DNA of 64,000 nucleotides from Candidatus Bathyarchaeota archaeon (lineage in GTDB: Archaea > Thermoproteota > Bathyarchaeia > Bathyarchaeales > Bathycorpusculaceae), in NCBI GenBank assembly GCA_963827165.1, contig CAWGZR010000005.1, positions 640,001 through 704,000 of the forward strand, given 5' to 3'. The position numbers and the translations under genes were made by a program. This document shows positions 4,874 to 30,801 of this stretch, in pieces. The notes beneath the pieces were generated by a model. That model was not told the DNA's origin and did no database searches. It saw only the letters and a program-made list of their open reading frames with translations. How positions within the stretch are numbered: the first letter of the stretch is position 1; each line of letters opens with the position of its first letter.

Positions 4874-5067
4874 AAGTTTTTTGCTGCCTTTTTTTATAAA
4901 GCTTAAAGTTTGCGAGTTAAGTTTTACCTGTTTCCGTTTCTTCGCGTTTTTTCCATCTTTCTACCTTAGCAGCCGATGCGTTGCGAGTTTGAGACCGAAG
5001 CGTTAAAAAAAGGGCGGATTTGCGTCGGGATTAACTAATGGTTAAAATTTTGAAAGAAAAATATGAT

Positions 5068-5655: not shown

Positions 5656-5717
5656 TGTAAAGCCTCGTATTTTTCCTTTCAGTTTTGCTTATTACTTTTT
5701 CCTGCATAGATGATTTG

Positions 5718-5729
5718 TTCTATATAGAA
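5718..5729. promoter_or_regulatory. Perfect palindrome TTCTATATAGAA upstream of the 5068..5655 gene
   Basis: Same CTATATAG core recurs at 14331, 16895 and 21586 upstream of genes in this locus. Confidence 0.5.
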
Positions 5730-5775
5730 ACTCTTCTTCCTCATTTTTGGGCATTATTTGTTGACTTATAATCCT

Positions 5776-7441: not shown

Positions 7442-7460
7442 TTGTTTTCCCCTCTTGGTT

Positions 7461-11764: not shown

Positions 11765-14182
11765 ATGAACATTAAAACCTAAAACAAAACACATAGTAGC
11801 CTTGGCATTGACCCTTTTTATGGTCATGCTCGATGCTATTCGCGTGCGCGCATGCGGCGTATACCAGCGACCGGAACACCACCCTATCTTGATATTGTGC
11901 GCAACCGGCGGCGCTGCATCAACAAGCACCACCAATATTCCACTGAGCAGTTGGCACTCAATTCTCAGTAGATGTCCGAGTTGACAACTATGCAGACGTA
12001 AACCTTGGCCAGGCGCAAAAAACGGTATCAGCGGAGTCAGTTATGAGTCACATTGGAACCCAGCAGTGCTTACATACGTATCCATACTCAGAAGTCAATT
12101 GGCTACCATCACAATCAAACGCAGGTGACCTACAAAACCAGGTTGCATCAGGAAAAATAACCTTCGGACAGATTGCATTCTCAACGAGTAACCCATTCGC
12201 AGTAGCCTCAAGCGCAACTGGATCGGTATCCGCAACTATCACATTCCAAGTGGTCAGCCGCAGGCACAAGCGCTCTTACTCTTACACCTCAAGGCGCAGG
12301 CGTTCCATACATCGTCGCTCCACAAACAGTCGGAACACTCACATCAGGCCACGCAGTTACAGGATCACTCACATACAATGCACTATACAACCCACAAACA
12401 ACAGTCAGCCTATACGCAAATCCAGCAGACAGCGCAAACACCTTCCAGTTCGCAGCAGGCACAGACCCAATCGGCCAAACATTCCAAGTTGACATGTACA
12501 TCAACAACCCCAATGCAGTTCAAGTTTGGGGATGGAACTTAGGCGTAACATGGAATGCAGCAGCAATCCAACTGACAGGCATCACTGAAGGAACATACCT
12601 ATCAACAAGTAACCTAAACAATGCAAACGGCGCATCAACAATCTTCGTCCCAGGCTACGTAGACAACAACGCAGGAAACATCCCACAAGGAATCAGCGAC
12701 GTATACCTATCAGACTCCACAACAACCAACCCACAAGGTGTCCTTTGCACATTAACCTTCACCGTCATAAGCTTCACCAGCAGCAACATCAACCTAGTCC
12801 AAGGTATCCCATCACTTGAAACACTCGTAGGAACAACCCCCACGGCAGTTACACCAGCACCAGTGCTCCAAAACTTCCAATACATAACAAACTCCCCAGC
12901 AGCACCAACAAGCCCAGTTGCAAAAATCACCAACGGCGCCACAACCTACACCAACGGACAAGCCCTCTCACCAGCATTCAATTCAGGTGCATCATTCGGC
13001 TTGACCGCAGCGAACTCAGTTCCAGGAATGGACGTTATCCCGAACTCTGCAGATCTATCTTACCCGAGTTATCCAGTTACAGGATACTCATGGTCTTTCA
13101 CAGCAACTGCAGGCGCACCAACATTGTTCACAAGCCCAACGACAACTGAGACACTAAGCTTCCTCACACCAACAGTTAACTCACTTACCACATACACCGT
13201 ATCGCTAACAGTGACAACAGCATCAAATCCAAATGATGCGAGCTACATCCCAACAAGCATCGCAACAACATTCTCATTCCAAGTCCAGCCAGCATCAACC
13301 GCACCAACAACCGCAGGCGCACTATTAGACATCTACGTTACAAACCCGGGAACTCCAGTCTACAACCCATCAGTAGCCTCAACGACCAATCCAATGTACG
13401 TCCCTGACGGAAACAACGGCAACCCACTCGCAGCAGGAACAAGCGCATATACACCAAACTCCTACAGCGACGCATTCGGCCCACAAGCAGCCATGATCTT
13501 AACCGGCGTCGTAACATTCAACGGCGCACCAGTCGCAAACAAAGAAGTAACCTTCAATGTCGTAAACAATCAAGGCGTAGTAATTGGAACATACACCGCA
13601 ATGACCGACGAGAACGGAATCGCAACAGTTAGCTACAGACTTCCATGGTTTGACGGCACTTATGCAACTGGCCCAGCAAGCGAATTCGGTATCTGGAGCG
13701 TAAAGGGAGCAGTTGAAGTTCAACAAACAATCGTAACTGACAACATGCCATTCGACTTCGGAGACATAATAAGCATAGTCAGCGGCAGCGTAACACCAGC
13801 CTCATCCTCAGTGCCAAGAAGCACACTAACGATATCTACAAGCCAATCATTCACAGTCGGCCTCTCAGGCATCTCCGACCAGTCGCAAGCCTACTGGATG
13901 TCCTACACCGTGATTGATGCAGGAAACGTACCAGTCGCAACCGGCGTAGTATCATCATCAATGCCAGCAGCAGCGTACTCATCAACAGGCGGATTGACTG
14001 TAACTCCAAGCACAAGCAGCACAGGCGCATCATTCGTAATCCCGTCATATGCATTCGTCGGAACCGCAACAATCGTCGTTAACCTCTACAATGCAAACCC
14101 AGTCACTTCACTAAACACGGCCGTAACCTACTGCCCACAAGCATCAGCAACCTTCACAATAGCTATACCCTTCGGCGAATAA
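11765..14182 (+). CDS. Major scaffoldin-like secreted protein: two cohesin-like domains, PKD-like domain, Big_1-like domain, C-terminal IPSYAFVG domain; indels in the 5' part
   Basis: ATG 11765 follows the RBS AAGGAG. Cohesin 1 is WLPSQSNAGD..GQIAF..SATITFQV and cohesin 2 is VDMYINN..GWNLGVTWN..TEGTYL..LCTLTFTV. The 12494..14182 portion is intact. Confidence 0.75.
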
Positions 14183-14424: not shown

Positions 14425-15480
14425 ATGAATAAGAAATTCCTATTAGCAGTTTTTCTCATTGGGATCGTCTTGGCAACCGTAGTTGTGGAAGTCAGAGCCA
14501 TCAACGCTTCAACGGTGACTTTAACACTTGGCAATAACGCGAACAATCCCTCTACACAATACCCAGCCGACGCGTACTCGCTATTCACGTTAAATCAAAC
14601 CATGATATACAACGACATCGTACAAACACAGTACCCGACCGATGGGCTCGTAGGAGTACAAATCCAGGATCCAAACGGCGCCACAATGGTAATCAGGACG
14701 CTGCAAACAGGCACCACAATTCCAGACTCAATACCCATCACCATAAGCGAAGCATTCCTGTGCAACAGTGGCGAACAGAATATTACCAGCATAACGATCC
14801 CATCCGGCACCAACTTGTTTGTTCCGCAGATTTATTTCACTGTCTACAACAATCAGGCTACAGCGCAATCACTAATAGTTACCCTCAACGTATATGACAG
14901 CAACGGCATACCGTTCCCTGCAGTATCCCAAGTTATGCCTAATGTTCCGGCTTACACCTCAAAAGAATCCACTCTAAATTTCTATATCCCGTCGTGGGCT
15001 CACTACGGCACAGCTACAGCGTATGTCGACGTTTACACCGCCATGCCCAATAATAACGGCTATCCACTGGGAAAAGAATACAACTTCCCATTCACAATAA
15101 CAGGCGGGACAGCATACCAAGGTCTCCAGCCAATGACACAGAGTAAAAATGGTTCCCCAACTAACTTCTTCAGCATGTCTTTTAGACTGCCGCAGTACTC
15201 TGACGTCACACTTGGCGCCTTCACGGTCACATCCACAGCAAACTACCTGGGCGTCATGGGTTCAGAAACAACACCTTTCAGCGTCCAAGAGTTTGCAGAC
15301 GTTAATGGAGATAGCGCCGTAAACTTCAATGACATAACAAACTTTGTTGCGCTATACATAAACTACTTCGCGAACCATGTATACAGCCCACAAATAGACT
15401 TCATACATGACGGAAGTGTAATTAACTTCAATGATGTAGCTCTCTTCGTAGCGTACTACATTCAGGCTTGGAGCTCATAA
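14425..15480 (+). CDS. Secreted protein with IPSWAHYG domain and C-terminal dockerin-like module
   Basis: Signal peptide; DVNGDSAVNFNDITNFVALY..NHVYSP..DFIHDGSVINFND, very similar to the PstS dockerin. Confidence 0.8.
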   Translation: MNKKFLLAVFLIGIVLATVVVEVRAINASTVTLTLGNNANNPSTQYPADAYSLFTLNQTMIYNDIVQTQYPTDGLVGVQIQDPNGATMVIRTLQTGTTIPDSIPITISEAFLCNSGEQNITSITIPSGTNLFVPQIYFTVYNNQATAQSLIVTLNVYDSNGIPFPAVSQVMPNVPAYTSKESTLNFYIPSWAHYGTATAYVDVYTAMPNNNGYPLGKEYNFPFTITGGTAYQGLQPMTQSKNGSPTNFFSMSFRLPQYSDVTLGAFTVTSTANYLGVMGSETTPFSVQEFADVNGDSAVNFNDITNFVALYINYFANHVYSPQIDFIHDGSVINFNDVALFVAYYIQAWSS

Positions 15481-15485
15481 GAAGC

Positions 15486-16835
15486 ATGAGAAAAAAAACA
15501 ATCGCTCTGCTGATCCTCACTATCTTAGCTTTCTCTATTTTTCCTTTTGTTCCAAATACGAAGGCTCAAGGTACATCGCCAACCGTTTCACTTACGCCTT
15601 CAACAACTCAAGTGACACAGGTCAATCAATACATCTTCCTAAACGTTACAATAACTGATGTTCAAAACCTCTGGGCATGGACCGCTACTGTCACTTGGGA
15701 TCCAACAGCACTAACCCTGATTGGTTCTCCAACAGAAGGAAGCTTCCTTCAACAAGCGGGCACCACAGAATTTATCCCCACTCCTGCGAAAAACCAACCG
15801 GGCGCAGAGGTCATTAATGACGCAGTTCTGGGCTATGCCGGAGCAAGCGGAAACGGAGACTTAGCGACGATCGAGTTCCAAGTAATAGGACAAACTTCAA
15901 CAACCGTTCAGCTGGGCAATATAACTATAGAAGGTCCACCTCCAAGCGGATCGTTGTACGGCACCTCAATAACACTTGCAGCGACTTCTTCATCAGCAAC
16001 AATCACCTTTGTTTCAGGCGGAGTCCCAGCAGCCGACGCTGGACCGGACCAAACGGTTACGCAGGGCACAACAGTAACCTTCGACGGCTCAAAATCTCTA
16101 CCATCATCCATCACATCATACTCATGGAACTTTGTGTATAATGGCGCTAACGAATCGCTTACCGGCGTAAATCCCACTTTCGCATTTAACCTCCCGGGTA
16201 TATACGTTGTTACACTAATAGCTACAGACGCAAACGGCCCCAGTACACCGACAACAGTAACAATAACAGTCAATAGCAGCAGCAAACCAATCGCCGTAAT
16301 CGCGGGCGTCAGCCAAGGGCAATCAGTCCCGACAGGACAACCTATAACCCTTAGCGGCACAGGAAGTTCCGAGCCTAACAACGGAACTATAGCCAAATAC
16401 CTGTGGGGCGTTAACCTTATCTCACAAACAAGCACTGCCGGCAAAACCAGCCAAGAGACAGGAGGCGCTTTAGCGATAGGATCAAACGCCACCGTAACAT
16501 ACACTTTTTCGTCCTTTGCGTCAGATCTGAAATCAGAAACCTACAACATTACGCTAACAGTTTTCGACGCAACCAACCAAAACAACACCGCCACCACACA
16601 AATTACTGTTGTCCGCGGCACAGGCGCAACCTCAACCCCTACAGCAACCAGCTCAACTACGACATCAACCCCTGGATCCACTTCCACTTCGGGTGCAACT
16701 TCAAGCCCAACTCCCGCCTCCACATCGGACGACGGGCCACAGGCAGGTCTGCCACCCGAGGTAATAGCAATCACAGTAATCATCACTATACTGGCACTCT
16801 GCGGATCAACCATCTGGCTAAGAAAAAGAACCTAA
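15486..16835 (+). CDS. Membrane-anchored cohesin protein: cohesin, 2 PKD domains, S/T linker, C-terminal TM
   Basis: Cohesin LNVTITDVQNLWAW..TWDPTAL..EGSFL..GDLATIEFQV; PKD ADAGPDQTV..FDGSKS..YSWNF..PGIYVVTL; TM followed by RKRT tail. Confidence 0.82.
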   Translation: MRKKTIALLILTILAFSIFPFVPNTKAQGTSPTVSLTPSTTQVTQVNQYIFLNVTITDVQNLWAWTATVTWDPTALTLIGSPTEGSFLQQAGTTEFIPTPAKNQPGAEVINDAVLGYAGASGNGDLATIEFQVIGQTSTTVQLGNITIEGPPPSGSLYGTSITLAATSSSATITFVSGGVPAADAGPDQTVTQGTTVTFDGSKSLPSSITSYSWNFVYNGANESLTGVNPTFAFNLPGIYVVTLIATDANGPSTPTTVTITVNSSSKPIAVIAGVSQGQSVPTGQPITLSGTGSSEPNNGTIAKYLWGVNLISQTSTAGKTSQETGGALAIGSNATVTYTFSSFASDLKSETYNITLTVFDATNQNNTATTQITVVRGTGATSTPTATSSTTTSTPGSTSTSGATSSPTPASTSDDGPQAGLPPEVIAITVIITILALCGSTIWLRKRT

Positions 16836-16894
16836 TGAAAACGTCAAAAAGCAATTTATCTCCTCTTCCTTACGAAATTGTGCCTGTTTGAGTT

Positions 16895-16910
16895 TTATCT
16901 ATATAGATAA
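16895..16910. promoter_or_regulatory. Palindrome TTATCTATATAGATAA upstream of the cohesin anchor gene
   Basis: 16-bp perfect palindrome with the CTATATAG core, in the duplicated promoter block. Confidence 0.55.
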
Positions 16911-16990
16911 TACAGTTCTCAATATTATATTTTGGATAGGGCTAAATAATTTAGTCTAAAGATATCGCTGTAAAGGGAGAGATATATTAT

Positions 16991-17788
16991 ATGAAGAAAT
17001 TCGTGTTAGCAGTTTTTCTCGCAGTCCTCGCTTTGGTAAGCGTCATAGCAATTTACCCTTCACACGCAAGCACGGCAACAACGATGAGTATCGACTCATC
17101 TACCCAACAATTTCCCTCAGCCACGGTTGGATCCACCATACAAATAAACATTGAAGTAAGCAATGTGCAGGGTCTTTGGGCATGGGACGTAGCTGGGTTG
17201 ACGTTTAATCCTGCATACTTGAATTTAACAGGTGCTAGCGAAGGTCCGTTCCTTCAAAAAGCTGGACAGACTCTATTCATCTGGACTTCAACTTCCCAAG
17301 TTTCCTTCGCCAAAGGCGTCATTCCAGACATATCTGACGCGCTGCTTTCCTATTCCACTGAAAGCGGAAGCGGCGTCCTTGTTACCTTAACGTTCCAAGT
17401 TCTTTCCTTGGGTACTTCACAAGTAGCTTTTAACCAAACGACCCTCGATACCCCAATAAACGAAGCGACAGGAGGACACACGGACTTTGAGCAAATCCCC
17501 TGCACGAACATTAACGCAAACATAGTTTTAGGGCCAAATACAGCTACGCCTTCACCAACATTTACATCGAATCCTTCCTCAACCCCCGTCAGTTCGACCT
17601 CTCCAAAATCATCAACCACACCCACAGCATCTTCAACCGCCAAAGCATCCTCATCTCCTAACTTGACATCCACCCCGACACAAAACGCCCCGGAATATCC
17701 AATCGTCTCAATCTTAATAGTGCTTTTCGCTGTCATCACACTCTCAACTTTAGTGCTCGCCACGAAGGCTAAAGTCAACAAAAAATAG
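16991..17788 (+). CDS. Cohesin anchor protein with S/T/P linker and PEF-CTERM-like sorting signal
   Basis: Cohesin INIEVSNVQGLWAW..FNPAYL..EGPFL..GVLVTLTFQV; C-terminal APEYP, TM and KAKVNKK. Confidence 0.82.
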   Translation: MKKFVLAVFLAVLALVSVIAIYPSHASTATTMSIDSSTQQFPSATVGSTIQINIEVSNVQGLWAWDVAGLTFNPAYLNLTGASEGPFLQKAGQTLFIWTSTSQVSFAKGVIPDISDALLSYSTESGSGVLVTLTFQVLSLGTSQVAFNQTTLDTPINEATGGHTDFEQIPCTNINANIVLGPNTATPSPTFTSNPSSTPVSSTSPKSSTTPTASSTAKASSSPNLTSTPTQNAPEYPIVSILIVLFAVITLSTLVLATKAKVNKK

Positions 17789-18182
17789 CCTTTCCTCCAT
17801 TTTTCAAAAAAAAAGTAGATATTCGCAAAAACGAAACAATTCTTTTTGATTCCAATAAACTCACTCAATTTTTGCTGTTCTTGATCTACATCGGTCACAA
17901 AATTTGCAAAATTGACCGAAATAACCAATAAAGATTGAATGCACGTGGCAGTTTTCGATAGAAAACTGAACAAATTTCGTTTTCTATATTTTGAAAATTA
18001 TCTATATTGACTATATGATCTATTTGGCTAAGGTAAAATAGTTAACGTCACAATAGTTCTTTTCAGAGGGAGCGCTTCGATGTTTCATAAAAAAGGAGTT
18101 ATGACTATCTTACAGCGGCTTACGGACGATAGCGCTCACGCTTTTGGAGGCCAGCTGAACGAAACATAAGAAAATTATTTGT

Positions 18183-19871
18183 TTGGTCCTGGTCTGTATC
18201 TTTGCAATTTCTGTTTTTTCAGTAATGACGCACTTTATCAATGCTCAAACTGGTCCAATTTTAAGTATCGTTCCAACAGGCGATCCGGGGGCTACCAGCA
18301 TCACTATGCTTTCAACCCAAACCGTCGGCACAACCTTTTCCGTCGATGTCCGGATTGACGACTACTCAACCGTAAATATTGGCGGAACTAACAATGGTAT
18401 TAACGGAGCCAGTTATGTGGTGACCTGGGATCCAACAGTTCTGGCGTATCAATCTTATACTGATGGAGCTTGGCTTCCATCCCAATCAAACACTGGCGAT
18501 TTGTCAAACAAGGTCGCGAACGGACAATTAACCATAGGTCAAATCGCTTTCGGAAGCAGCAGTTTTATAACCGCTGATAGCGCTTCTGGGTCAGTTTCAG
18601 CAACCATTATATTCCAAGTTCTCAGTAACAGTGTCGGTACCACCATTGGACTTGAGCAGCAAGGAGCAAACGTTCCTTACCTTATTGCGCCGGAAACCGT
18701 AGGCGGACTCACCTCAGGCCATGCGGTTTCTGATGTTACCGCTGTGAATGCGCAATACGGAACAGTGGCTTCACCTACTCCCTCGCCCACTGGGACACCT
18801 ATACCTACTTCTTCCCCAACTCCGACACCTACCCCCACACCAACATCTTCCCCTACCCCAACGCCGACTTCTTCTCCTACACCCTCAGGACAAACCCAGG
18901 GACCAATAGCCATTATCACTAATCAAAATGGAACAACATACCAAACTGGTGAACCAATACTTCTTGATGGCGGTACCTCAACTGCAGGATACGATGCAAA
19001 TAGTGCAGAAACGTGCCCAATAACAAATTACGCTTGGCTAGTTCAGTACGAGAACGACTCTGTATTCGGTGTCTATAGCGGTGGGGGCGTAACAATTAAC
19101 GTAAACAGTGCAACGTCGCTTCATGTCACTTTGATAGTAACTGCCCCAGACGTTGATACTTCACCAAATTCTCAATACACAAACACTTCGACGACAAGCG
19201 TTTGGATTAATGTCCAAACAGCTCAGTCACTAACAAAAATGGATTTCTTCTCCAGCCAAAGCGTCTATGGACCGCAACAACTGGTGCAACTATATGTATA
19301 CGTCACGTATAATGGGGCGCCTGAACCCAATGAAAACGTGGCATTTACTGTAATAAATCCGAGTGGCACAATTGTCTCTGTGCGTACGGCCTTCACTAAT
19401 GAAACAGGCTACGCCTACACGGATTATATAACACCCAACATTGCATCGTCGATTGGGACATGGACTGCCATATCATCGGTAGAGGTCAACCAAGTAATAA
19501 TCACTAACAAGATTACCTATGAATATAACTACCTGGTCACCGTCACAACCAACGGCATTACAGTCCCCTCAACTGTTGCAAGAGGCGGCACAATAACCGT
19601 CACAGTGGCCATCCAAAACACCGGTGACATAACACTCAGCTCAGTTGTAACCATCACGATTTACGACCAGGACAACGTACCCATAGCCACCGACCTGCTT
19701 CCTGTAACCAACGCTGCTAGCGGGGCAACGGTTTCAGGAACATTTACTATTCCAACCTGGGCTGCCGTTGGAGAAGCAACGGTTTACGTTAACATCTTAT
19801 CGGCTGACCCTACAGCAGGTGGAGTCCCGTTGTGCCCTGAACAGACAGCAAATTTCCAAATAACCGCATGA
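18183..19871 (+). CDS. Scaffoldin paralog: cohesin, PT linker, PKD-like, Big_1-like and IPTWAAVG domains
   Basis: FSVDVRID..VTWDPTVL..WLPSQSNTGD..GQIAF..SATIIFQV; TPTPTP tract at ~18770-18890; C-terminal IPTWAAVGEATVYVN..CPEQ. The true start may lie ~28 nt upstream (TKHKKIICL is in frame, possible indel). Confidence 0.8.
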   Translation: MVLVCIFAISVFSVMTHFINAQTGPILSIVPTGDPGATSITMLSTQTVGTTFSVDVRIDDYSTVNIGGTNNGINGASYVVTWDPTVLAYQSYTDGAWLPSQSNTGDLSNKVANGQLTIGQIAFGSSSFITADSASGSVSATIIFQVLSNSVGTTIGLEQQGANVPYLIAPETVGGLTSGHAVSDVTAVNAQYGTVASPTPSPTGTPIPTSSPTPTPTPTPTSSPTPTPTSSPTPSGQTQGPIAIITNQNGTTYQTGEPILLDGGTSTAGYDANSAETCPITNYAWLVQYENDSVFGVYSGGGVTINVNSATSLHVTLIVTAPDVDTSPNSQYTNTSTTSVWINVQTAQSLTKMDFFSSQSVYGPQQLVQLYVYVTYNGAPEPNENVAFTVINPSGTIVSVRTAFTNETGYAYTDYITPNIASSIGTWTAISSVEVNQVIITNKITYEYNYLVTVTTNGITVPSTVARGGTITVTVAIQNTGDITLSSVVTITIYDQDNVPIATDLLPVTNAASGATVSGTFTIPTWAAVGEATVYVNILSADPTAGGVPLCPEQTANFQITA

Positions 19872-19881
19872 GTAGAGAAAA

Positions 19882-21537
19882 ATGATAGTGCCCAAGCTTA
19901 AGACGATAAAACGTAAATCTGTAATTTGCCTACTGTTGACTTTTCTCATTATCTTTTCTGTTTTCTCTTCGGCAACGCGTTTGATTAATGCTGCAAGCGC
20001 CCCCGTTTTAAGTATTGTTCCAACTGGCATCGGCGGCGCCACCTCAGGTACCACAACTATGATTCAATCAGAAGCGGTTGGCTCCAATTTCTCAGTAGAT
20101 ATCAGAGTTGACAACTACGCGAGTGTCAATATTGGCGGCAAAAACAACGGTGTCAGTGGAGCAAGCTACTTTGTCACTTGGAACCCTGCAGTGCTTGGGC
20201 TTGTATCTTACACTGATGAAAAATGGCTTCCCTCCCAGTCGAGCACAGGTGATTTTTCAGGTAACGTAACACTTGGGCAACTTCTCATAGGTCAAATCGC
20301 TTTCGACCTGAGCAGCCCTTTTCTGACTGCTAATAGCACTTCTGGGTCAGTATCCGTTACGATAAAGTTTGAAGTGCTGTCGACCGGTTCAACCCTTATT
20401 TCACTTTCGCCCCAGAAGGGCGTTGCATACCTTTTGGCTCCTCAGACGGCGGGGGATGGAATCACGGCAGGTTACGCAGTGTCGGGAACTTTAACAGCGA
20501 ACGCACAATATGGCCCATCATCGGGATTAAGCAGTCCGTCACTTTACGGCCCCACTGCCGTTTTCACTCCCATGGACGGGTCAGCCTTCAAATTAGGCAC
20601 ACCCATAACGTTAAATGCAACGTTATCCACACCCGGCAATGACACCCAAATCTGCGACATAACAAACTACGCATGGAGCGTTGAATATCTCAATGGAACA
20701 ACACTCACCTCGCTCACAGGAGACGCCACAACATTCACCCCCGATGCTCTCGGATCGTTCCGCGTAATTCTCATCGTTACAGCCCCAGACGTTAGCCCAT
20801 CTCCTAACCCTGACTATTCAAGTACAGATAGCACTAGCGCAATAATCAACGTAATTTCCAGCGCGCTTAGCATCGACGTATTTACTGATAAAGAAGGCAT
20901 CGGCCAAGGAGCAAGCGAAGGCGCATACGGGCCTCTTCAATTGGTGCCAACATACGCGTTAGTCACAACTAGCGATACTCCGTTGGCAGACCAAAGTGTT
21001 TTTTTCACTATACTTGACGCGAACGGAACCTCTTATTACAGGCAAGGAGTCACAAACGAAACCGGCATTGCTACAATTCAACCCAGCTTCAGACTTCCAG
21101 CTCCTGACTTTGGTTCTCCTCAAACAGGCTTCGGAACATGGTCAATAACCGCGACAACCAGCGTCCTAAATGTCATAGCAAACGATACCACAACCTTCAC
21201 CTTCAACTACTTGAGCGGGATAGAAAACATAACACTCCCCACCAGTATCCACGCAACCGAAACATTGCCCATACAGCTAACCATAAACAACATAGCCCTT
21301 TCTGAACAATGGACACAGTTAAGCATCACAATATTTGACCAGGCAGGTATACCCATAGGTTCCTCCACTCTGACGGCAACTCAACAAACCCAAGACCTAA
21401 CCGTCGTAGACGCAGCAATCACCATTCCTTCATGGGCATTCACTGGGCAAGCAACCGTTTATCTTTGCCTAATTTCTAACTCAACAAACATCCCATTGGC
21501 CCCGGAAAGCATTGCCAACTTCAATATTCTGTCATGA
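19882..21537 (+). CDS. Scaffoldin paralog: cohesin, PKD-like, Big_1-like and IPSWAFTG domains
   Basis: Collinear homology with 18183..19871 (FSVDIRVDNYASVNIGG..TWNPAVL..WLPSQS..GQIAF; ITNYAW; IPSWAFTGQATVY). Confidence 0.8.
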   Translation: MIVPKLKTIKRKSVICLLLTFLIIFSVFSSATRLINAASAPVLSIVPTGIGGATSGTTTMIQSEAVGSNFSVDIRVDNYASVNIGGKNNGVSGASYFVTWNPAVLGLVSYTDEKWLPSQSSTGDFSGNVTLGQLLIGQIAFDLSSPFLTANSTSGSVSVTIKFEVLSTGSTLISLSPQKGVAYLLAPQTAGDGITAGYAVSGTLTANAQYGPSSGLSSPSLYGPTAVFTPMDGSAFKLGTPITLNATLSTPGNDTQICDITNYAWSVEYLNGTTLTSLTGDATTFTPDALGSFRVILIVTAPDVSPSPNPDYSSTDSTSAIINVISSALSIDVFTDKEGIGQGASEGAYGPLQLVPTYALVTTSDTPLADQSVFFTILDANGTSYYRQGVTNETGIATIQPSFRLPAPDFGSPQTGFGTWSITATTSVLNVIANDTTTFTFNYLSGIENITLPTSIHATETLPIQLTINNIALSEQWTQLSITIFDQAGIPIGSSTLTATQQTQDLTVVDAAITIPSWAFTGQATVYLCLISNSTNIPLAPESIANFNILS

Positions 21538-21725
21538 CCTACAAGAAAACAATCACGCGATTTCATTGGCATGTTCTCTTAATTTTTCTATATAGCACGT
21601 ATCAAGTACAAGTAGTTCTATGAGTTCGCCTTCGTTAAACCTGTTTCTATGTCGAAAGATGATTTATAGCGCGTGCTATCAATCAATAAAATAATTTAGT
21701 GGAAACAGTGAAGGGAGATTTGGCC

Positions 21726-23343
21726 ATGAGACGAAATGTGATAGCTAGTGTGTTGCTCATTACCCTAATGTTAGCGAGTTTTGGTGCAATGGTTTACGCC
21801 CAAGTATACCGTCCAAATAGGGTACCCAAGTTCACCAACCGACTTAGGCATCACTACATCTCAAGGCTATTGGATCGGACAATTCCCAATTACAATAAAT
21901 GGAAACACAGGTGAAGCCTACTGCTTAACTCCCAGCGGCACCGTCTATGAAGGTTCTTCTTATTCAGCCGACGAAGTCTTAGTACCAACGAACGACGCGA
22001 CATGGCAAGCTATCAGCTACTTATTGAGTTGGTATGCTCCAACAGACGCAACTAGTGCCGCAGTTGATCAAGTTGCAATCTGGGATCTTTTAGGCGAGGC
22101 TCCACCTTATTCTGACTTCGTTCTGGACTCCTCAATTACGAGTCCAGCGGCTACATTAGCGGCTGATGCTAGCGGCAAGAATACCGCCATGCCTATCGAC
22201 ACATTAACGTGGACTTCGCCCGGTGCAGGCACCACATCAGCTGATCCAGGTACGACGGTAAGTTTTCTGGTTCAACTTGGTTCCGCACGTCCAAACGTAC
22301 AAATCGACTTTACTGCGAGTCTTACATCAGCTGGTGGTTTGCCCACAACTTTGCCGTCGGCAGATGTTAGCCCAAGTGTGGCTTTTACAGACGGTGACGG
22401 TATGGCCCAAGTTAGTGTTACAGTGCCTTCGGACGCCCCGGTGGGTTCGACAATCGCAGTTACAGCTTCTACACAAAGCGTATGGCCAACGCAATACTTA
22501 GACCTGCTAAACTACAATAGTGGAGCTCAAAACCTACTCGGATTAGGCCCGGCTCTAGACCTAACAACAAGCGCGAGCACTTCAGTCTCTCAATCCTTAA
22601 CAATCAACGCGCCTGTGACCGTAACATCAAACAACGCTACTATGGGATCTGTAAGCCCATCGTCAGGAAGCTACGGACAGAACCCCACCACAATAACTGC
22701 AACAGCGAATCCTGGATACCAATTTGTCGACTGGGTAGCGACAGGCGGAGTATCCTTGACGTCTAACTTGGATAGCACTACAACTTTCACGACGTCTGGA
22801 ACTGGCTCAATAGAAGCGTTCTTCGCACCTCTAACACCTATACAAACCACCAGTGTACTAGTTCCAGCGGTCGCAACTCAAACAGGCTTCACAATGCCGT
22901 CAAGTGTAACTTTAACCAACCCAAATTCGGTGTCAGAAACCGCAAGCATTCAAATTTCCACAGGCTCAAGTGTATTGTACATCGGAACAGTGACATTGAA
23001 CTCTCAGCAAACGCAGGCTTTACCCTGTTCCATCAATACCGGCTCATTGCCAATAGGAAACTGCGCTTTCACCGTCACAGTAACAACTACGAGCCTGTCG
23101 AGTTCAAAACCTCAAATGCTAACTGTGCAGTCTGGAATAACCTGTTTAGGCGATCTAAACGGTGACGGAAAAGTAAACTTCAGTGATTTATGTATCTTTG
23201 TGACGGAATACGTTAGCTATCTCCAAACGGGGACATACTGTGCAAACATTGATTTCAACCATGTCGGAAGCTTAAGCTTTTCCGACGAAACTGCATTTGT
23301 TTATTCCTACGCCCAATACGGACAGTGGGCATGCGGTGCTTAA
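21726..23343 (+). CDS. Thioester-domain (Cys-Gln) adhesin-like protein with InlB-B-like repeat and C-terminal dockerin; frameshift just after the signal peptide
   Basis: Signal peptide MRRNVIASVLL..AQ in one frame, then GEAYCLTP...AVDQVAIWDLL, ITATANPGYQFVDW, and GDLNGDGKVNFSD / DFNHVGSLSFSD. Confidence 0.75.
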
Positions 23344-24126: not shown

Positions 24127-27100
24127 ATGGGAAGGCTAGTTAGAAATTCGGTTATATCCGTTGTACTAATTTTCATTATGCTTTTCCCGTGTCTGCATGT
24201 TGGATTAACTGTTGCTCAGCCTCCTTCAAATTATTTTACCATAACTGGCGCTCCATCCACAGCAACTGCGGGCCAAAGTATTAACGGGATAACGGTGACG
24301 GCGTATAATTCTAATGGTCAGGTATTGACAAGTTATACGGGGCAAGTTTATTTTACTTCAACCGATTCAAGAGCGACCCTTCCATATACTTCTCAGAGTA
24401 CTTACACTTTCACTACTGGCGTCTCAGGGGATAATGGAGTTCATGTTTTTTCAGGAATTAACTTAGTGACAGCTGGCTCCCAAACCATAACCGTCACTGA
24501 CGGAACTATGTCGGGAACTTCCCCTACAATAATAGTCAGTCCAGCTGCCCTTTACCAGATCCAAGTCTCACCAAAGACCGCAACAATAGTTACGGGGTCC
24601 CAAATAACCTACACTGCTACTGCTTCTGACTACTACGGTAACACGTGGGACGTTTCTGCTTCAACTTTCTTTTACATCGATTCTGGCGCCCACGGCTCAT
24701 GGTCAAATAACGTTTACACCTCCGCATCGACCGGCGTCTGGGGTGTAGGCGCCTTCTATAACGGGAAGACCGATTCGGCCTCTCTGACAGTTATTCAAGG
24801 AAACGCGGTGAGCATCACCATAAGCCCCAAAACCCCCTCTATCACAGCAGGCAACTCGCAATCTTTCACTGCAACAGCCCACGATTCCATGAGCAACGAA
24901 TGGGATGTCACTAGCCTCACAACTTGGAGCATAGATTCTGGCGCTGGCGGCTCCTGGAGCGCCAACACTTACACATCCCACATTGCTGGAACATGGCTGG
25001 TAACAGGGACTTACGGCAGCTTTCATGATACCGCTTCCTTAACTGTAACACATTCAACCCCATCTTACCTTAGTATTTCCCCAGTTAACCCAACCTCCGC
25101 GGCAGGCACTTCCGTAACTTTTACAGCTACAGCTTTCGACTTTTACGGAAATAGTTGGGATGTCACAAGTTTGGCAAGCTTTAGCATAACTTCTGGGGCT
25201 GGTGGTTCGTGGAGCGGAAACGTTTACACATCTGCAAAAGCAGGAATTTGGACAGTGTCAGCTAGTTATTTAGGCATACCTGCAACTACAACATTAACCA
25301 TCAGCTTCGCCAATGTTAACAGCATCACAATTACTCCTCAGACTTCCACCTTGGTGGCTGGTTCCTCAGAAGCCTTTACGGCTACTGCTTTAGACATTTA
25401 CGGCAACACCTTGGACGTTTCGAGTTCCACAAGTTGGAGCATTAATGTTGCCGCAGAAGGCTCATGGACCGGTAACACATACACTTCAGCGATAGCTGGC
25501 ATTTGGACGGTAACTGGTCTGTATGAAGGCATATCTGAGACCGCAACTTTAACGGTTACTCCAGGTTCTGCCGTCAGTTTAGTTGTAGGCTCAGCAGTAT
25601 CTTCAACTGCCGCCGGAACAAGTGTAACTTTTACTGCCACAGCCTTCGATAGTTTTGGTAACTCTTGGGCTGTTTCAGCTTCGACTTCCTGGGTTATTGA
25701 CTCAGGCGCGCAAGGGCATTGGTCTGGCAACGTTTACACTTCAGCGAAAGCTGGGTTTTGGACGGTAACCGGTGTTTATGGCGTATTAAGGGATAGTGCC
25801 ACACTAACTGTAACTCCTGGTCAACCAATCAGCTTAACAATATCTCCTCCAACAGCCGACCTAACGGCGGGTCTTACTCAAACCTATACTGCAACCGCCC
25901 AAGATAGTTTTTCAAATACTTGGGACGTATCCTCATTAGCCCGCTGGACTATCAATAGTCAGGTAGGTGGCCTTTGGTCAGGCAATGTCTACTCATCCGC
26001 CATAGCAGGATCATGGACCGTAACTGCCACTTATCAAGGCTTGTCCAACACCGCATCTTTAACTGTCACACACACCTACGCTGTGCAAATTCAGGTAAAC
26101 CCTGAAACATCAACCATTGTTGCTGGTAATACTCAAACTTATACGACTACAGCAACTGATCACTTTGGAAATAGTTGGGACACAACTAGTTCTTCAACTT
26201 TCACAGTAGACGAAGAAGCTGGTGGCTCCTTAAACGGGAACATCTACACTTCAGCTAATGCTGGAACATGGACCGTTACAGCCACAAGCCTCGGATTAAC
26301 TAACACCGCTATGTTAACAATCACCCATGCGTCAGCGGTCTCAATCTCTATCAGCCCAAATACTGCTACAATTACTGCGGGAAGCACCCAGACTTACACG
26401 GCATTGGCATCTGACACGTACAACAATATCTGGGACGTAACAAGCTTGACAACTTGGACTGTCAGCACAGGGGCGGGAGGCAGTTGGTCCGGCAATGTTT
26501 ATACTTCTGCAGCTTCGGGAAACTGGGTGATCAAGGGAACTTATTCAAGCTTTTCCGACACCGCTTACTTAACTGTGAATCATGCTAACGCCATAAGCGT
26601 CAGCATAATGCCTAAGACAGCTACCATAACAACGGGATCCAACGAAGCGTTTACTGCCACTGCAATCGATGCGCACGGCAACATTTGGGACGTCACTAGC
26701 GCTTCAACTTGGATAATTGATTCTGGTGCCGGCGGCTCATGGACAGGAAATGTCTATTACTCCGTCGATGCAGGCACCTGGAGAGTAACCGTTACTTACG
26801 GCAGTTTAACTGACACTGCATCTTTAACAGTAAATCATGGAACCGCTCAAAGCATAACGGTGACTCCAACAACGGCAACCTTGACCGCGGGCTCTCCTCA
26901 AACATTTACAGCAACAGCATACGATTCTAACGGTAACAGATGGGATGTCACCAGCTCCACGACCTGGACTATTGATTCTGGCGCAGGTGGCCTTTGGAGT
27001 GGCAGCACTTACACTTCAAACACAGCTGGCGTCTGGATCGTCGTGGGAACTTACTCAGGATTAACCAGCACATCCACAGTAACCGTAAATCACGCGCCTG

Positions 27101-28305
27101 CAGCCAGCATAACCGTGGGATCATCCTCAAACTCGATCACCGCCGGAGCCACAGTAACTTTTACTGCCACAGCCTCAGATGTTTATGGTAATTTATGGAG
27201 TGTCACAAGCTCTACTGTCTGGACTATTGATTCTGGTGCGGGCGGCTCCTTATCGGGAAACAGTTACACTTCCGAATTATCCGGTGTCTGGACTGTTAAA
27301 GGCGCCTACGGAAGCTTATCTGATATACTATCCTTAACCGTAACTCATGCTTCCATGGTCAGCATCAATGTTACTCCCACTGATGCCACCGTTGCTGCAG
27401 GTTCCAACGAAGCCTACTCAGTCACAGCCTACGACAGCTTCGGCAACAGTTGGGACATAACAAGCTCGGCGCAATTGAGCATATCCTCTCAAGCAGGCGG
27501 CATCTGGACCAACAATGTTTATACTCCCGCTAAGGCAGGCACATGGACAATCACTGCCGCAGTTCCAGGCTTTTCAATAACAACACCCATCATAGTGGTT
27601 CATGGTTCCATAGCCAGCGTAACAATTTCGCCCCACAATCCAACAATTAACGCGGGATCAAGTCAGACCTTCACGGCGACCGCCTATGACCAGTACGGAA
27701 ATTTCTGGGACGTAAGCAACCTTGCAATCTGGATTATCGACTCTGGCGCTCAAGGTTCATGGGCAAACAGTGTCTACACTTCAGATAAAGCAGGAACGTG
27801 GGAAGTCACAGGAGTCTATGACAACTTACTGGACAATACCTTCATGACTGTTAACCACGGCACAATCACGAGCCTCACAATAACTCCAGCCACGGCAACG
27901 ATTAATCAAGGAAGCACTCAGACCTACACTTCAACCACTTCGGATGCTTACAGCAATACCTGGGACGCCACAAGCTCAACCAACTGGCAAATAACTGCGG
28001 GCGCTGGCGGCTCATGGACAGGAAACGTCTACACATCTGCTAATACGGGCACTTGGACCGTTACCGGCACCTCTTCCAGTGTATCTGGAAATGCACAGCT
28101 GACAGTAAATGGATATTCACCAGTTGATTTCCTTCACACAGGCCAAGTAAACAGTCTAGACATATTCTACTTCATTTACTGGTACGTTTATTACGGTCAG
28201 TATGGATACGTCAATCCAGCTTGCGATTTTAACCATGACGGAAAGCTGAACTTCCAAGACGTAGTGCTATTTACGACTTACTATATCGCTGCCACGACAC
28301 CATGA
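24127..28305 (+). CDS. Large Ig-like repeat surface protein (14 repeats of ~85 aa) with C-terminal dockerin
   Basis: Signal peptide; 14 copies of TATA.D.YGN.WDV...W.IDSGAGGSW.GN.YTS..AG.W.VT; C-terminal DFLHTGQVNSLDIFYF / DFNHDGKLNFQD. Confidence 0.85.
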   Translation: MGRLVRNSVISVVLIFIMLFPCLHVGLTVAQPPSNYFTITGAPSTATAGQSINGITVTAYNSNGQVLTSYTGQVYFTSTDSRATLPYTSQSTYTFTTGVSGDNGVHVFSGINLVTAGSQTITVTDGTMSGTSPTIIVSPAALYQIQVSPKTATIVTGSQITYTATASDYYGNTWDVSASTFFYIDSGAHGSWSNNVYTSASTGVWGVGAFYNGKTDSASLTVIQGNAVSITISPKTPSITAGNSQSFTATAHDSMSNEWDVTSLTTWSIDSGAGGSWSANTYTSHIAGTWLVTGTYGSFHDTASLTVTHSTPSYLSISPVNPTSAAGTSVTFTATAFDFYGNSWDVTSLASFSITSGAGGSWSGNVYTSAKAGIWTVSASYLGIPATTTLTISFANVNSITITPQTSTLVAGSSEAFTATALDIYGNTLDVSSSTSWSINVAAEGSWTGNTYTSAIAGIWTVTGLYEGISETATLTVTPGSAVSLVVGSAVSSTAAGTSVTFTATAFDSFGNSWAVSASTSWVIDSGAQGHWSGNVYTSAKAGFWTVTGVYGVLRDSATLTVTPGQPISLTISPPTADLTAGLTQTYTATAQDSFSNTWDVSSLARWTINSQVGGLWSGNVYSSAIAGSWTVTATYQGLSNTASLTVTHTYAVQIQVNPETSTIVAGNTQTYTTTATDHFGNSWDTTSSSTFTVDEEAGGSLNGNIYTSANAGTWTVTATSLGLTNTAMLTITHASAVSISISPNTATITAGSTQTYTALASDTYNNIWDVTSLTTWTVSTGAGGSWSGNVYTSAASGNWVIKGTYSSFSDTAYLTVNHANAISVSIMPKTATITTGSNEAFTATAIDAHGNIWDVTSASTWIIDSGAGGSWTGNVYYSVDAGTWRVTVTYGSLTDTASLTVNHGTAQSITVTPTTATLTAGSPQTFTATAYDSNGNRWDVTSSTTWTIDSGAGGLWSGSTYTSNTAGVWIVVGTYSGLTSTSTVTVNHAPAASITVGSSSNSITAGATVTFTATASDVYGNLWSVTSSTVWTIDSGAGGSLSGNSYTSELSGVWTVKGAYGSLSDILSLTVTHASMVSINVTPTDATVAAGSNEAYSVTAYDSFGNSWDITSSAQLSISSQAGGIWTNNVYTPAKAGTWTITAAVPGFSITTPIIVVHGSIASVTISPHNPTINAGSSQTFTATAYDQYGNFWDVSNLAIWIIDSGAQGSWANSVYTSDKAGTWEVTGVYDNLLDNTFMTVNHGTITSLTITPATATINQGSTQTYTSTTSDAYSNTWDATSSTNWQITAGAGGSWTGNVYTSANTGTWTVTGTSSSVSGNAQLTVNGYSPVDFLHTGQVNSLDIFYFIYWYVYYGQYGYVNPACDFNHDGKLNFQDVVLFTTYYIAATTP

Positions 28306-28490
28306 TGAAACTAATAACAGAAAAACTTCTCTGCAAAGGCCGATTCAAAAATCGGCACCCGAGAGGGCAAAATGTGCAATCAAAACGTTTTCTAAATAGA
28401 CTATTTTCTCTTGCTCAGTCTCAATGTTGACTATGGCGATAAGTGTCATATGGATAAACCATCCATACAGCTCTCTTGGTTGAGAGGCTT

Positions 28491-30801
28491 ATGAAGAGAG
28501 TGTTAGCGGTATTCGTAGTCTTGGTCATCTGTATGTCCATGTTTGGAATGTTATCACCAAAAACAATGGCTCAAAGTCCACAACCAACAAGCGTCACGGT
28601 TTCCTGCTCACCAAACCCTGCTGAAGCAGATTCCCCTGTTACTATAACAGCTGTCGTCACCGGGCAAAACCCGACTGGAAGCATTACTTGGAGTTCAGAG
28701 ACTACAAGTATTTCGAATCAAGAGGGTGTTGAAGGCAGCTTCACTTCCAACGTAAGCTTGGTGTCGGCTAATGGTATTTCCACAACTACTTTCTACGATT
28801 CAATCTACGGTTCGGACCTTATAACTGCAACCTACAGCGGGGATTCATTTAATTCTCCAAGTGTCGGCACGAGCACTCTGACGTTGGTTCCTGAACCGAT
28901 GCCTCAGCTTAGCGTGGTTCTCTCAGGAACTCAGAGTACTTCGGCAATTCCCACCCAGCCGATTGGCTCCACCTTCAGTGTAGATGTACGAGCGGAAAAT
29001 CTAACGGGCATTAAGCCTGGAGTATGCGCCATCGGGTATGAATTAATCTGGAATCCTTCGGTTTTAAGTTTTACAAGTTACAGCGACAATAATTGGTTGC
29101 CTGATCAAATGAACCTCGACATCATAAGTTCGCAGTGGATTTCAATTGGCACCGCAATTATTAGTCAAATAGCTTTTGACACTAACAGCGCGTGGGCTTG
29201 CACTACGGTTAACGGTAGTGTAAGTGCTACGTTTAGGTTTCGTGTGATTTCTGGTGGCTCAAGCTCTATTGATCTTCGAGAAGAAGGCACAACGGGTTAC
29301 ATAGACTATCCAGCGCTAACGCTGACCGGTGTAGTGACGGGTATTAACATTGCTGCGAATACATCAAACGCGATTTATGGTACGTCTCAGGCGCTGTCCA
29401 ATAAATCGTCAGCTTATGTTTATTGTTCAGCAAACCCCGACTTGGCTGGGAGTCCGGTTACATGCAACGCCATTATTTATGGTGGAAACTCAGTTCCCGC
29501 AGGAACAATTACCTGGAGCACAAATAGCAGCACTGCTAGTTTCGGCTCAGTTCAAACTTCTTTGATTAACGGAATGTCAAAGACAAGTTTTGTCGATGCC
29601 AATATAGGTAACGATGAAATTACTGCTATCTATAGCGGAGACTCCAATAATTCAGCTTGTTCGGGAAACACTACTTTGTCCCTTTTCGTTGAATCCTTTT
29701 CTTCGATACCTCGGGTTAGCGTTGTGCTTTCTGGTACCCAAAACGTCTCCGACATTCCGCCATCGCCCATCGGTTCCTCTTTCAACGTAGATGTCAGAGT
29801 GGATAACCTTACTGGCATCAGCCCGGCGTAAATGGTATTTCATACGAATTGACGTGGGATCCTTCAGTGCTGAGCTTTGTAAGTTGTTTTGACAACAACT
29901 GGCTGCCTAGTCAATTTAACATCGACTTTACGAATCCGCAGTACGTATCAAAGGGAACTGCAACTATTGGCCAAGAAGCTTTTGTCCCTACTAATCCGTG
30001 GGCTTGCACCACATTTAGCGGTAGTGTCACTGCTACGTTTACGTTCCGCGTGATTTCTGGTGGCTCAAGCTCTATTAATCTTCAAACCCAAGAAGGGTTA
30101 ACTGGTTTCGTAGCATACCCAACGGTCGTTGAGACGGGTATTGTGGAATCCGTTTTAAAGGGGCCAACCTCCATTTCAAATGCTGTGTATGGGAAACCAG
30201 TTGCTGCCTGTGACAATGCCCTTGTCAAAGGTGGCTCTGCGTCGGTTATTGATTCTTCAGCGGGTATTACGGTAGATTTGAGCGGCAGTTCTGCTCCTGA
30301 CAACACAAATTTGGCCATCACTTCGACTAACTATGGAGTTGATCTTCCGGAGGGTATCAGCAAATTCGCAGTAGGCGATGGAATAGGATATTATGATGTG
30401 AAGGCGAGTTCAGATGTTTCTTTTGGCTCAGATGCTTCAGCTATATTTCTTTTTCCAATCCTGCCTTCACATCTAGCTGCTTTATCTCGTACTGGGACGG
30501 AAGTCAATGGGTCGAGTTAGCTACAACTTACACTGCGCCAAACACGGTTTCATGCAGTATTCCAGCAGCCGACCTATCTGGGACACCTTTTGCAGTAAGT
30601 GCATTTTCGCTTGTGGACTTTTATCGTACTGGCACCGTCGACTTTAACGATGTCCTCTACTTCGCTGCCGCATATATTCAATACCAACAAACTGGAGTTC
30701 TCAATCCTGCGTGCGACCTCAATCATGATAGCAAATTAGACTTCAACGACATACTGCTATTCGTCAGCGATTACCAAGCAGCAGCCCAAAGCAAAGGATA
30801 A
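28491..30801 (+). CDS. Adaptor-like scaffoldin: (Big_3, cohesin) x2, further domain, C-terminal dockerin; split by frameshifts near 29830 and 30450
   Basis: Two homologous cohesins (FSVDVRAENL..WNPSVL..SATFRFRVISGG and FNVDVRVDNL..WDPSVL..TATFTFRVISGG). The terminal ORF 30613..30801 is a dockerin (DFYRTGTVDFND / DLNHDSKLDFND). Confidence 0.72.

Follow-up and report, generated by a model that had tools for sequence, protein, structure and literature searches.

The DNA analyzed here, referred to as the window, is a stretch of 64,000 nucleotides (nt) from Candidatus Bathyarchaeota archaeon (contig CAWGZR010000005.1, positions 640,001 to 704,000 of the forward strand). It carries a gene for a putative secreted surface adhesin, in which an N-terminal unit resembling the thioester domains (TEDs) of Gram-positive adhesins is followed by a stalk and a dockerin-like C-terminus. 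An earlier note, made from the letters alone, had described the span 21726-23343 as an archaeal TED adhesin carried as dockerin cargo. That reading holds as to the kind of protein and errs on the bond partner, on where the domains begin and end, and on the frame. Residues of the unit are numbered from the Tyr at 21805, and the 270-residue unit corresponds to 21805-22614. The gene has the following features:

21726-21803, + strand: Sec-type signal peptide (MRRNVIASVLLITLMLASFGAMVYA, followed by Q), in a frame that differs from the remainder of the gene in the assembly
21804-21810, + strand: site of a one-base surplus (gtatacc) between signal peptide and mature protein, from comparison with public contigs
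21805-22188, + strand: predicted TED head lobe, residues 1-128, β-barrel strands and then a three-helix bundle (AlphaFold2 (AF2) model, structural matches)
21919-21930, + strand: YCLT, the [YFL]CΦζ motif, with Cys40 (TGC, 21922-21924), the predicted thioester cysteine (conservation, motif definition)
22066-22083, + strand: DQVAIW, the TQxxΦW helper motif on helix α2, with Gln89 at 22069 (CAA, 22069-22071) and Trp93 at 22081
22189-22488, + strand: predicted β-sandwich inserted after helix α3, residues ~129-228, seven strands, similar to Big_1 and macroglobulin-type (MG) domains (AF2 model, structure matches)
22489-22572, + strand: predicted P/Q hairpin, residues ~229-256, leading back to the head lobe and carrying AQNLL, the ΦQζΦΦ motif, with Gln242 (CAA, 22528-22530)
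22615-22827, + strand: stalk domain of the InlB B-repeat kind (Pfam Flg_new_2, E = 8.1e-8; 32.6 bits, cut-off 23.6; residues 279-349 of the open reading frame)
22843-23139, + strand: second β-sandwich stalk domain (AF2 model of 22615-23340, strands at residues 77-175 of that model)
23137-23343, + strand: dockerin-like module built from two loop-helix repeats (DLNGDGKVNFSD... and DFNHVGSLSFSD...), with the stop codon at its end (Pfam, PDB matches, model)

The mature protein is read from an open reading frame (ORF) at 21781-23343 (+ strand, 520 amino acids (aa)). The two motifs singled out in the earlier note, AYCL (Cys codon at 21922) and DQVAIW (Gln codon at 22069), both lie in this frame, and the family conserves them beyond what chance would give. 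The 270-residue unit holds every one of the three published TED motifs exactly once, and Cys40 is its only cysteine. In alignment A1, which contains the window protein and 33 of 37 homologue matches down to 42% identity (the other four, with query coverage of 67% or less, were dropped), Y39, C40, Q89, A91, W93 and Q242 are invariant in all 34 sequences. A 43-sequence alignment reaching down to ~18% identity retains Cys40 in 43 of 43 sequences and Gln242 in at least 90%. When all 182 fetched proteins were aligned to the A1 profile, the aligned columns held Cys40 in 143 of 146 cases, Gln89 in 145 of 149, Trp93 in 147 of 148 and Gln242 in 84 of 85.

The AF2 model of residues 1-270, computed from the 34-sequence alignment, has a pLDDT (predicted local distance difference test) of 94 and a pTM (predicted TM-score) of 0.89. 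It shows strands between residues 2 and 59, three helices in all (65-76, 82-95 and 109-122) and, after the last of these, seven strands between residues 134 and 228. Cys40 lies at the end of strand 34-40, DQVAIW on helix 82-95, and Gln242 just ahead of strand 244-247. Searching the PDB with Foldseek placed class II TEDs, BaTIE (6fwv, E = 3.1e-9) and EfmTIE86 (6fwy, E = 1.3e-8), at ranks 1 to 4; further TEDs in the list were Cpa (2xid, E = 4e-4) and SaTIE (6fx6, E = 8.4e-4). A second structure search, VIA, which is independent of Foldseek and covered 48,161 chains, returned the following TEDs, with root-mean-square deviation given as rmsd:

5a0g, CpTIE (class I, rank 2): Z 11.2, rmsd 3.2, 139 of 175 residues aligned, model 1-255 on chain 102-275
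5dcq, FNE: Z 10.5, rmsd 3.5, 141 residues aligned, model 1-256 on chain 2-206
2xi9, Cpa: Z 10.2, rmsd 3.4, 148 residues aligned, model 1-252 on chain 390-584
6fwv, BaTIE: Z 9.8, rmsd 9.1, 218 residues aligned, model 1-270 on chain 3-257
5a0l, SfbI: Z 9.3, rmsd 3.6, 143 residues aligned, model 1-252 on chain 78-270

The head superposes on class I TEDs (CpTIE 5a0g, SfbI 5a0l, Cpa 2xi9/2xid and FNE 5dcq) with Z of 9.3-11.2 and rmsd of 3.2-3.6. In the ESM Atlas, the top match (0.90) is an unnamed bacterial cluster, and clusters named as TEDs score 0.81-0.84; we treat the latter as leads only.

Homology was also traced through intermediate sequences. The A1 profile, run against 1.84 billion representatives, matched 158 proteins (E ≤ 1e-3), and 72 of the 150 listed matches, chosen for a length of ~200 aa or more and a match to the head part, were scanned with Pfam. 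The TED family PF08341 was detected in 11 of the 72 at E ≤ 1e-3, and eight (P0094, P0105, P0124, P0133, P0137, P0138, P0148 and P0175) lie above its 22-bit cut-off. Close relatives of the window protein fall under this cut-off at 14-20 bits (P0036, 19.9; P0006, 18.4; P0007, 17.2). A joint alignment of 15 sequences keeps the Cys and the Q.A.W residues without exception. The earlier description of the N-terminal module as a TED homologue is supported by the predicted fold together with this transitive profile evidence.

Several observations weigh against this assignment. PF08341 had no match on the window protein at E ≤ 1 and none in a six-frame search of the genome. More broadly, none of the TED, TED_2, TEDa_beta and TQXA models of Pfam and NCBIfam matched the ORF at E ≤ 1; NCBIfam as a whole gave no match at all on the ORF. 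Profiles A1 and A3, run against PDB sequences, recovered no TED, and A1 found only chance-level matches (MopR, CD226). Because these direct searches of Pfam and PDB sequences gave none, the link to TEDs rests on the fold and on the intermediates. The two-lobe model reaches Foldseek TM-scores of at most 0.37 and deviates from class II chains by 8-9 Å rmsd, values that probably reflect the relative orientation of the lobes. In addition, DQVAIW has Asp where TQxxΦW has Thr; in the published account of this motif, none of its residues is fully conserved (Walden 2015, PMC4450167).

The architecture beyond the head points to class II. In class II TEDs, as described by Miller 2018 (PMC6194298), a seven-stranded sandwich is inserted between helix α3 and strand P, helix α0 is lacking, and a twisted P/Q hairpin returns into the head and brings the bond Gln. 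The order of secondary structure elements in our model agrees with that description: a barrel and three helices without α0, a sandwich after α3, strands 230-233 and 244-247 flanking Gln242 in what is predicted to be the returning hairpin, and a long strand, 254-267, that completes the sandwich. Among the VIA matches are the MG4 domain of complement C5 (Z 11.7), invasin with Z 11.0 and intimin with Z 10.3, all aligned to the sandwich over residues 129-270. The A3 profile likewise matched the sandwich to Big_1, intimin and invasin entries among PDB sequences (intimin Big_1, E = 2.5e-15). The Ig (immunoglobulin)- and MG-type matches over 129-270 align only ~100 residues and omit the hairpin. The class I superpositions reach residues 252-256 and, with 139-148 aligned residues, exceed the 128-residue head. 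These match ranges place residues ~229-253 with the head and the remainder with the sandwich, which leads to the class II topology. On the model, the unit is a class II-like TED, with entry of the hairpin into the head predicted. The first of the Ig-like stalk domains proposed earlier (~residues 129-228 plus 254-270) is, in this model, part of the TED fold and not of the stalk; the β-rich domains that follow it and the dockerin-like end stand.

The unit resembles the class II TEDs of TIE proteins (BaTIE 6fwv, SaTIE 6fx6 and EfmTIE86 6fwy) further in its size of ~260-270 residues, in carrying [YFL]CΦζ, xQxxΦW on α2 and ΦQζΦΦ, and in its N-terminal tip position behind a signal peptide (PMC6194298). 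It differs from them in sequence (only 11-15% identity, missed by PF08341), in a sandwich that is Big_1/intimin-like by sequence, in its dockerin anchor (a PES motif, transmembrane (TM) helix and basic tail in sister proteins) and in its archaeal host without peptidoglycan. Class I TEDs share the same three motifs (Walden 2015, PMC4450167). Unlike the unit described here, with its sandwich of 100 residues, they have a short linker at that place and the extra helix α0, and they are host-binding adhesins of pathogens, whereas this gene belongs to an environmental archaeon.

Which glutamine would form the bond? In the published TEDs, the bond joins the Cys of [YFL]CΦζ, on strand C, to a Gln near the C-terminus, which lies on strand Q within the weak motif ΦQζΦΦ; on helix α2, the TQxxΦW motif contributes a Gln and a Trp that hydrogen-bond the Cys backbone and are dispensable for the bond (PMC4450167, PMC6194298). 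The pairs reported are C138-Q267 in CpTIE and C109-Q261 in SfbI (Walden 2015, PMC4450167), and C71-Q266 in BaTIE, in a construct that begins at Glu35 (Miller 2018, PMC6194298). Judged only from the ends of the superposition ranges, these residues lie no more than a few positions from Cys40 and Gln242, respectively. For Cpa, Cys426 is named in a PDB title, and its partner is Gln575. Gln242 is the likely partner of Cys40 on motif and model grounds, and Gln89 and Trp93 are predicted, by analogy, to pack against the bond instead of forming it. The earlier note had derived the thioester from YC..TQxAIW itself, which the published motif assignment contradicts. Its version, in which Cys40 bonds to Gln89 inside a compact N-terminal domain and ordinary Ig domains form the stalk behind it, can draw on the conservation of Gln89, nearly equal to that of the Cys (145 of 149 aligned sequences), and on the equivalent Gln of solved TEDs, which lies directly beside the bond (PMC6194298). 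We consider it very improbable: that Gln is non-essential in the published domains, the invariant Gln of ΦQζΦΦ is present at the expected place, and the class I superpositions require residues past 128. Adjacency of Cys40 and Gln89 in a structure would not reveal the partner, since the TQxxΦW Gln adjoins the bond without forming it. The choice of Gln242 over Gln89 matters for any mutagenesis design.

It is also conceivable that the TED-like fold carries no reactive bond and serves as a non-covalent binding or structural module, with Cys40 and the Gln in another role. The small size of the head lobe (128 residues), the failure of the Pfam model on the window protein and the statement in the published account that class II targets are unknown (PMC6194298) would fit this view. 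Native TEDs, however, are ~17 Da light in nine of nine cases in the portion of the mass table considered (Walden 2015, PMC4450167), and we regard a bond-free module as improbable.

Downstream of the unit, the AF2 model of 22615-23340 (mean pLDDT 77.6) contains the two stalk domains and the C-terminal module. Foldseek found only generic matches of Ig or fibronectin type III (FnIII) kind for the second sandwich. Unlike TIE proteins, this one has neither isopeptide domains of the CnaB type nor ester domains in its stalk, and it lacks an LPXTG sortase signal: Pfam detected neither CnaB nor SpaA families in the ORF at E ≤ 1, and the C-terminus is free of LPXTG. In the C-terminal module, DLNGDGKVNFSD is followed by helix 189-205 and DFNHVGSLSFSD by helix 222-241 of this model. 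Searched as a single sequence against the PDB, the module gave nine matches at E ≤ 10, all of them dockerins, and the alignment to 2y3n_B covers both repeats. With the profile of the long-form family, the best PDB match was a dockerin (E = 9.9e-4), again over both repeats, and 18 of the 19 matches at E ≤ 1 are named as dockerin, cellulosomal or dockerin-bearing enzymes. No dockerin surfaced when Foldseek was run with the C-terminal model, a list filled with Ig/FnIII-type sandwiches and uninformative for a 70-residue module. The dockerin proposed earlier is retained as a dockerin-like end within a cohesin cluster, and by sequence we describe it as a weak but consistent dockerin.

The alternative is that the module is no working dockerin, for example a calcium-binding tail, in which case the protein would be released or held otherwise and its proximity to cohesins would be incidental. 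Two features of the module speak for this and against a docked adhesin. Pfam Dockerin_1 matches at E = 0.019 with 15.6 bits, where the cut-off is 22.9, and EF-hand models reach similar scores; and the second loop is atypical, with Val at a position where dockerins usually have Asp or Asn. We nevertheless think it unlikely, given the dockerin-type matches of the family profile across both repeats, the similar modules at the ends of two other genes of the cluster (14425-15480 and 24127-28305) and the presence in that cluster of at least five cohesin genes, in an order shared with a second locus. A complex prediction that paired the dockerin (A4 residues 168-242) with one of the at least five cohesins, namely residues 27-185 of the protein of 16991-17785, without an alignment, scored 0.23 in each of two runs, the mark being 0.32, and counts neither for nor against docking.

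The genes that surround the adhesin gene are as follows:

14425-15480: protein with signal peptide, β domains and a dockerin-like end
15468-16835, + strand: cohesin, PKD and TM anchor (cohesin recognized by eye from its likeness to the ORF at 16991; Pfam gives PKD only)
16991-17788, + strand: cohesin (E = 3.6e-4, 21.2 bits, below cut-off), Ser/Thr/Pro linker and TM anchor
18183-19871, + strand: secreted cohesin with MG2 and CARDB, upstream of the TED gene (Cohesin 27.2 bits, above the cut-off of 24.1)
19882-21537, + strand: secreted cohesin with MG2 and CARDB, directly upstream of the TED gene (Cohesin 21.3 bits)
24127-28305: secreted protein of 1392 aa with ~13 near-identical Ig-like repeats of ~95 aa and a dockerin-like end (no Pfam family above threshold)
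28476-30520: further cohesin modules, interrupted

The membrane-anchored proteins of 15468-16835 and 16991-17788 are, by their sequences, candidate docking sites. The order of anchored cohesins, two cohesin-MG2-CARDB proteins and a TED-dockerin protein recurs at locus L006, where the last gene is intact and encodes 540 aa. The arrangement resembles the non-cellulosomal cohesin-dockerin systems of Archaeoglobus and ANME (anaerobic methanotrophic archaea), which have many cohesin and dockerin proteins and no cellulases (PMC9012536), and for which a role in building surface assemblies has been proposed (Chadwick 2022, PMC9012536). It differs from them in its cargo: theirs are mainly substrate-binding proteins, and a thioester-domain cargo is unmentioned in the passages of that paper that concern them (PMC9012536).

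As a separate observation, the C-terminus of the 18183-19871 protein, which has an MG2 match, ends in ...LCPEQTANFQITA, whose CPEQ resembles CGEQ, the thioester motif of α2-macroglobulins. The likeness is probably a coincidence, because the paralogue of 19882-21537 has APES at this place.

The earlier note had treated 21726-23343 as one gene span. Its 1618 nt are not a multiple of three, and so no single open frame covers it. The ATG at 21726 begins a Sec-type signal peptide, MRRNVIASVLLITLMLASFGAMVYAQV, in another frame, which meets a TGA ~185 nt downstream; a profile search of the whole genome likewise divided the adhesin gene over two frames. As assembled, the gene is without an in-frame signal peptide, which counts against an exported adhesin. 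In the homologues P0001 (98% identity), P0004, P0007 and L006 (5920-7539, 540 aa), the same signal peptide is joined in frame, and the junction reads AQVSVQIG or AQVTVQIG in P0001 and P0004. Public contigs were compared over 21500-22500. All three that span the junction, one from run X1 (study P1) and two from run X2 (study P2), are one base shorter there, at 21808 or 21806, and removing the surplus base from the window gives exactly the AQVSVQIG / AQVTVQIG reading. One of these contigs is ~99% identical to the window (six other letters and two gaps in 878). The window also has one base more than the contigs of all three runs that span the intergenic position 21670. We infer that 'gtatacc' in the window is a merger of two alleles, 'gtatcc' and 'gttacc', which it resembles. 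Because three of three contigs are free of the extra base and a surplus occurs at 21670 as well, the frame break is read from these sequences as probably a consensus error of the assembly.

A competing reading is that the gene is a true pseudogene here, in which a one-base insertion uncouples the signal peptide and no adhesin is exported. The break itself and the interruption of two more genes of the cluster (12043/12494 and 29831/29849) would agree with this. However, the extra base is missing in contigs from two studies, one of them nearly identical to the window, the apparent merger of alleles and the surplus at 21670 point to indel errors in assembly, and the remaining 520-codon frame is open and conserved; we judge a pseudogene to be rather unlikely. 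A programmed frameshift at the junction was considered and rejected, because each of the three contigs is a base shorter than the window at this site and no slippery run was seen. Elsewhere in the cluster, a cohesin piece at 12043-12492 leaves frame before 12494-14182, and a second cohesin is broken between 29831 and 29849. The pattern of breaks at 12043-14182, at 28476-30520, at 21670 and at the TED junction suggests single-base indel errors in the assembly. In an RNA run, X18, one contig of 236 nt spans 22305-22500; presence in an RNA library is not proof of transcription.

The host is an archaeon of the Bathyarchaeia type. Its genome comprises 3.13 Mb in 14 contigs (94.5% complete, 3.9% contamination). 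The archaeal model is the best match to its full-length small-subunit (SSU) rRNA, with 1483 bits, outcompeting the bacterial members of the clan, and ribosomal protein S8e, a family detected among 14 control genomes only in the four archaeal ones, is encoded on the window's own contig, C5. The rRNA and S8e support the archaeal origin given in the earlier note. Among GTDB species-representative genomes, 24 loci of the family were found, and 23 of the 24 records are titled archaeal: Candidatus Bathyarchaeia or Bathyarchaeota in 21 cases and 'uncultured archaeon' in two. The remaining locus is L006 (84% identity), in a metagenome-assembled genome titled Candidatus Limnocylindrales bacterium. This genome also encodes the archaeal/eukaryotic S8e, and positions 1-7542 of the locus repeat the gene order of window 15468-23343 with protein identities of 59-83%. 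Because of the S8e gene and this synteny, its bacterial label or bin is doubtful and probably wrong. Sequencing runs with this stretch come from metagenomes of soil, peat and permafrost. The TED gene is present in a single copy in its own genome. The rarity of the family is a further point against the adhesin reading: it was found in three of 41 related genomes including this one, namely in two of 24 other genomes of the genus and none of 16 from other genera of the order. PF08341 matches seven of 301 genomes of the same archaeal phylum, four of them above cut-off and this genome not among them; archaeal TED-like genes are therefore already visible to Pfam through other lineages.

Most relatives are ~330 aa long and consist of a signal peptide, the 270-residue TED unit, (L/V)PES, a hydrophobic helix and a basic tail. 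The last three elements, with the tail rich in Lys/Arg, were seen in P0009, P0011, P0022, P0036 and ~25 other short relatives. By analogy, this tail is laid out like an exosortase or archaeosortase signal and may be an undescribed sorting signal; to call it archaeosortase-type is a guess. No PGF-, PEF- or other CTERM sorting model of NCBIfam matched it at E ≤ 1 in the short sister proteins. The dockerin form is limited to the closest relatives (P0001-P0003, P0005-P0007 and L006). In P0004 (803 aa, from another genome), the TED unit is fused to a cohesin-MG2 protein like those of ORFs 18183 and 19882 and there is no dockerin, and in P0048 (1039 aa) and P0050 (693 aa) the unit lies in the middle of the protein (residues 400-699 of P0048), between Big_3_5-like repeats. 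The N-terminus of P0048 has a short charged stretch and then a long hydrophobic segment, which we take to resemble an archaeal pilin-type (class III) signal peptide.

Among the 72 scanned relatives, bacterial proteins with PEP-CTERM tails (7) or the type IX secretion system (T9SS) tail Por_Secre_tail (4) were found (P0130, P0133, P0141, P0148, P0155, P0161, P0164, P0166, P0170, P0180 and P0182). The PEP-CTERM tails occur among relatives that pass the Pfam TED model and the T9SS tails on other relatives. These tails indicate that the module of TED and Big_1 is not confined to Gram-positive bacteria, and TED-type modules seem, from these sequences, to be widespread in diderm bacteria. The description of TED adhesins as Gram-positive is accordingly too narrow, given these relatives and the PF08341 matches in the archaeal phylum. 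Other domains in the bacterial relatives are SdrD_B, SpaA, DUF11 and CBM_2; in P0120 and P0174, the head lobe is combined with an ice-binding-like adhesive domain and CBM_2.

Taken with the domain order and the cohesin and dockerin genes around it, we read the gene as encoding a secreted, class II-like TED surface adhesin of a Bathyarchaeia-type archaeon, dockerin-tailed and with a predicted thioester, and assign this reading a probability of about 0.65 from sequence and model evidence. We infer how it would work as follows. The protein would be exported by the Sec pathway and its signal peptide cleaved after VYA. Cys40 of YCLT and Gln242 of AQNLL, the latter brought by the hairpin, would then form an internal thioester spontaneously, with loss of NH3, and Gln89 and Trp93 on helix α2 would pack against it. 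The TED would be displayed at the tip of the two-domain stalk, while the dockerin, with calcium, would hold the protein on a neighbouring cohesin protein, either membrane-anchored or secreted. An amine of a target, for example that of a lysine, would attack the thioester, and the resulting intermolecular amide bond would join the adhesin to its target. A precedent is SfbI, which bonds covalently to a lysine of fibrinogen (PMC4450167, PMC6194298).

Covalent tagging through a Cys-Gln thioester, predicted here, is also the principle of complement C3/C4 and α2-macroglobulin, and MG-type β-sandwiches are common to both, with MG domains of C5 and C4 as top matches of the sandwich. The thioester fold and motif of those proteins are unrelated to the present ones. 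The complement-type motif is GCGEQ, and it is absent here because the only Cys of the unit lies in YCLT. The thioesters of TEDs and complement are regarded as convergent (Miller 2018, PMC6194298).

A broader proposal, which we hold tentatively and at somewhat less than even odds, is that Bathyarchaeia of soil and peat use a thioester-armed covalent adhesin. It would be tethered by the PES-TM tail in most species and plugged by its dockerin into a cohesin scaffold in this lineage, and would weld the cell or scaffold cargo to amine-bearing particles or partner cells. If this is true, Archaea would gain their first covalent adhesion system, and cohesin-dockerin assemblies their first cargo with a thioester. 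To our knowledge, spontaneous Cys-Gln thioesters for covalent attachment have been characterized only in Gram-positive pathogens and commensals. In agreement with the earlier note, which knew of no characterized archaeal example, our literature search turned up neither an archaeal TED nor a protein combining a TED with a dockerin, subscription journals lying outside its coverage. The proposal would extend thioester chemistry to Archaea and to free-living organisms of soil and peat, bring a further type of cargo into the cohesin-dockerin systems of archaea, and offer a handle on how the abundant uncultured Bathyarchaeia attach to detritus or partners. The compact domain is also of possible interest for engineered covalent protein tags.

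Elsewhere in the window, at 40487-41665, a methionine adenosyltransferase (MAT) gene matches the bacterial-type metK equivalog TIGR01034 with 559 bits on this archaeal contig. Many archaea use a distinct archaeal MAT.

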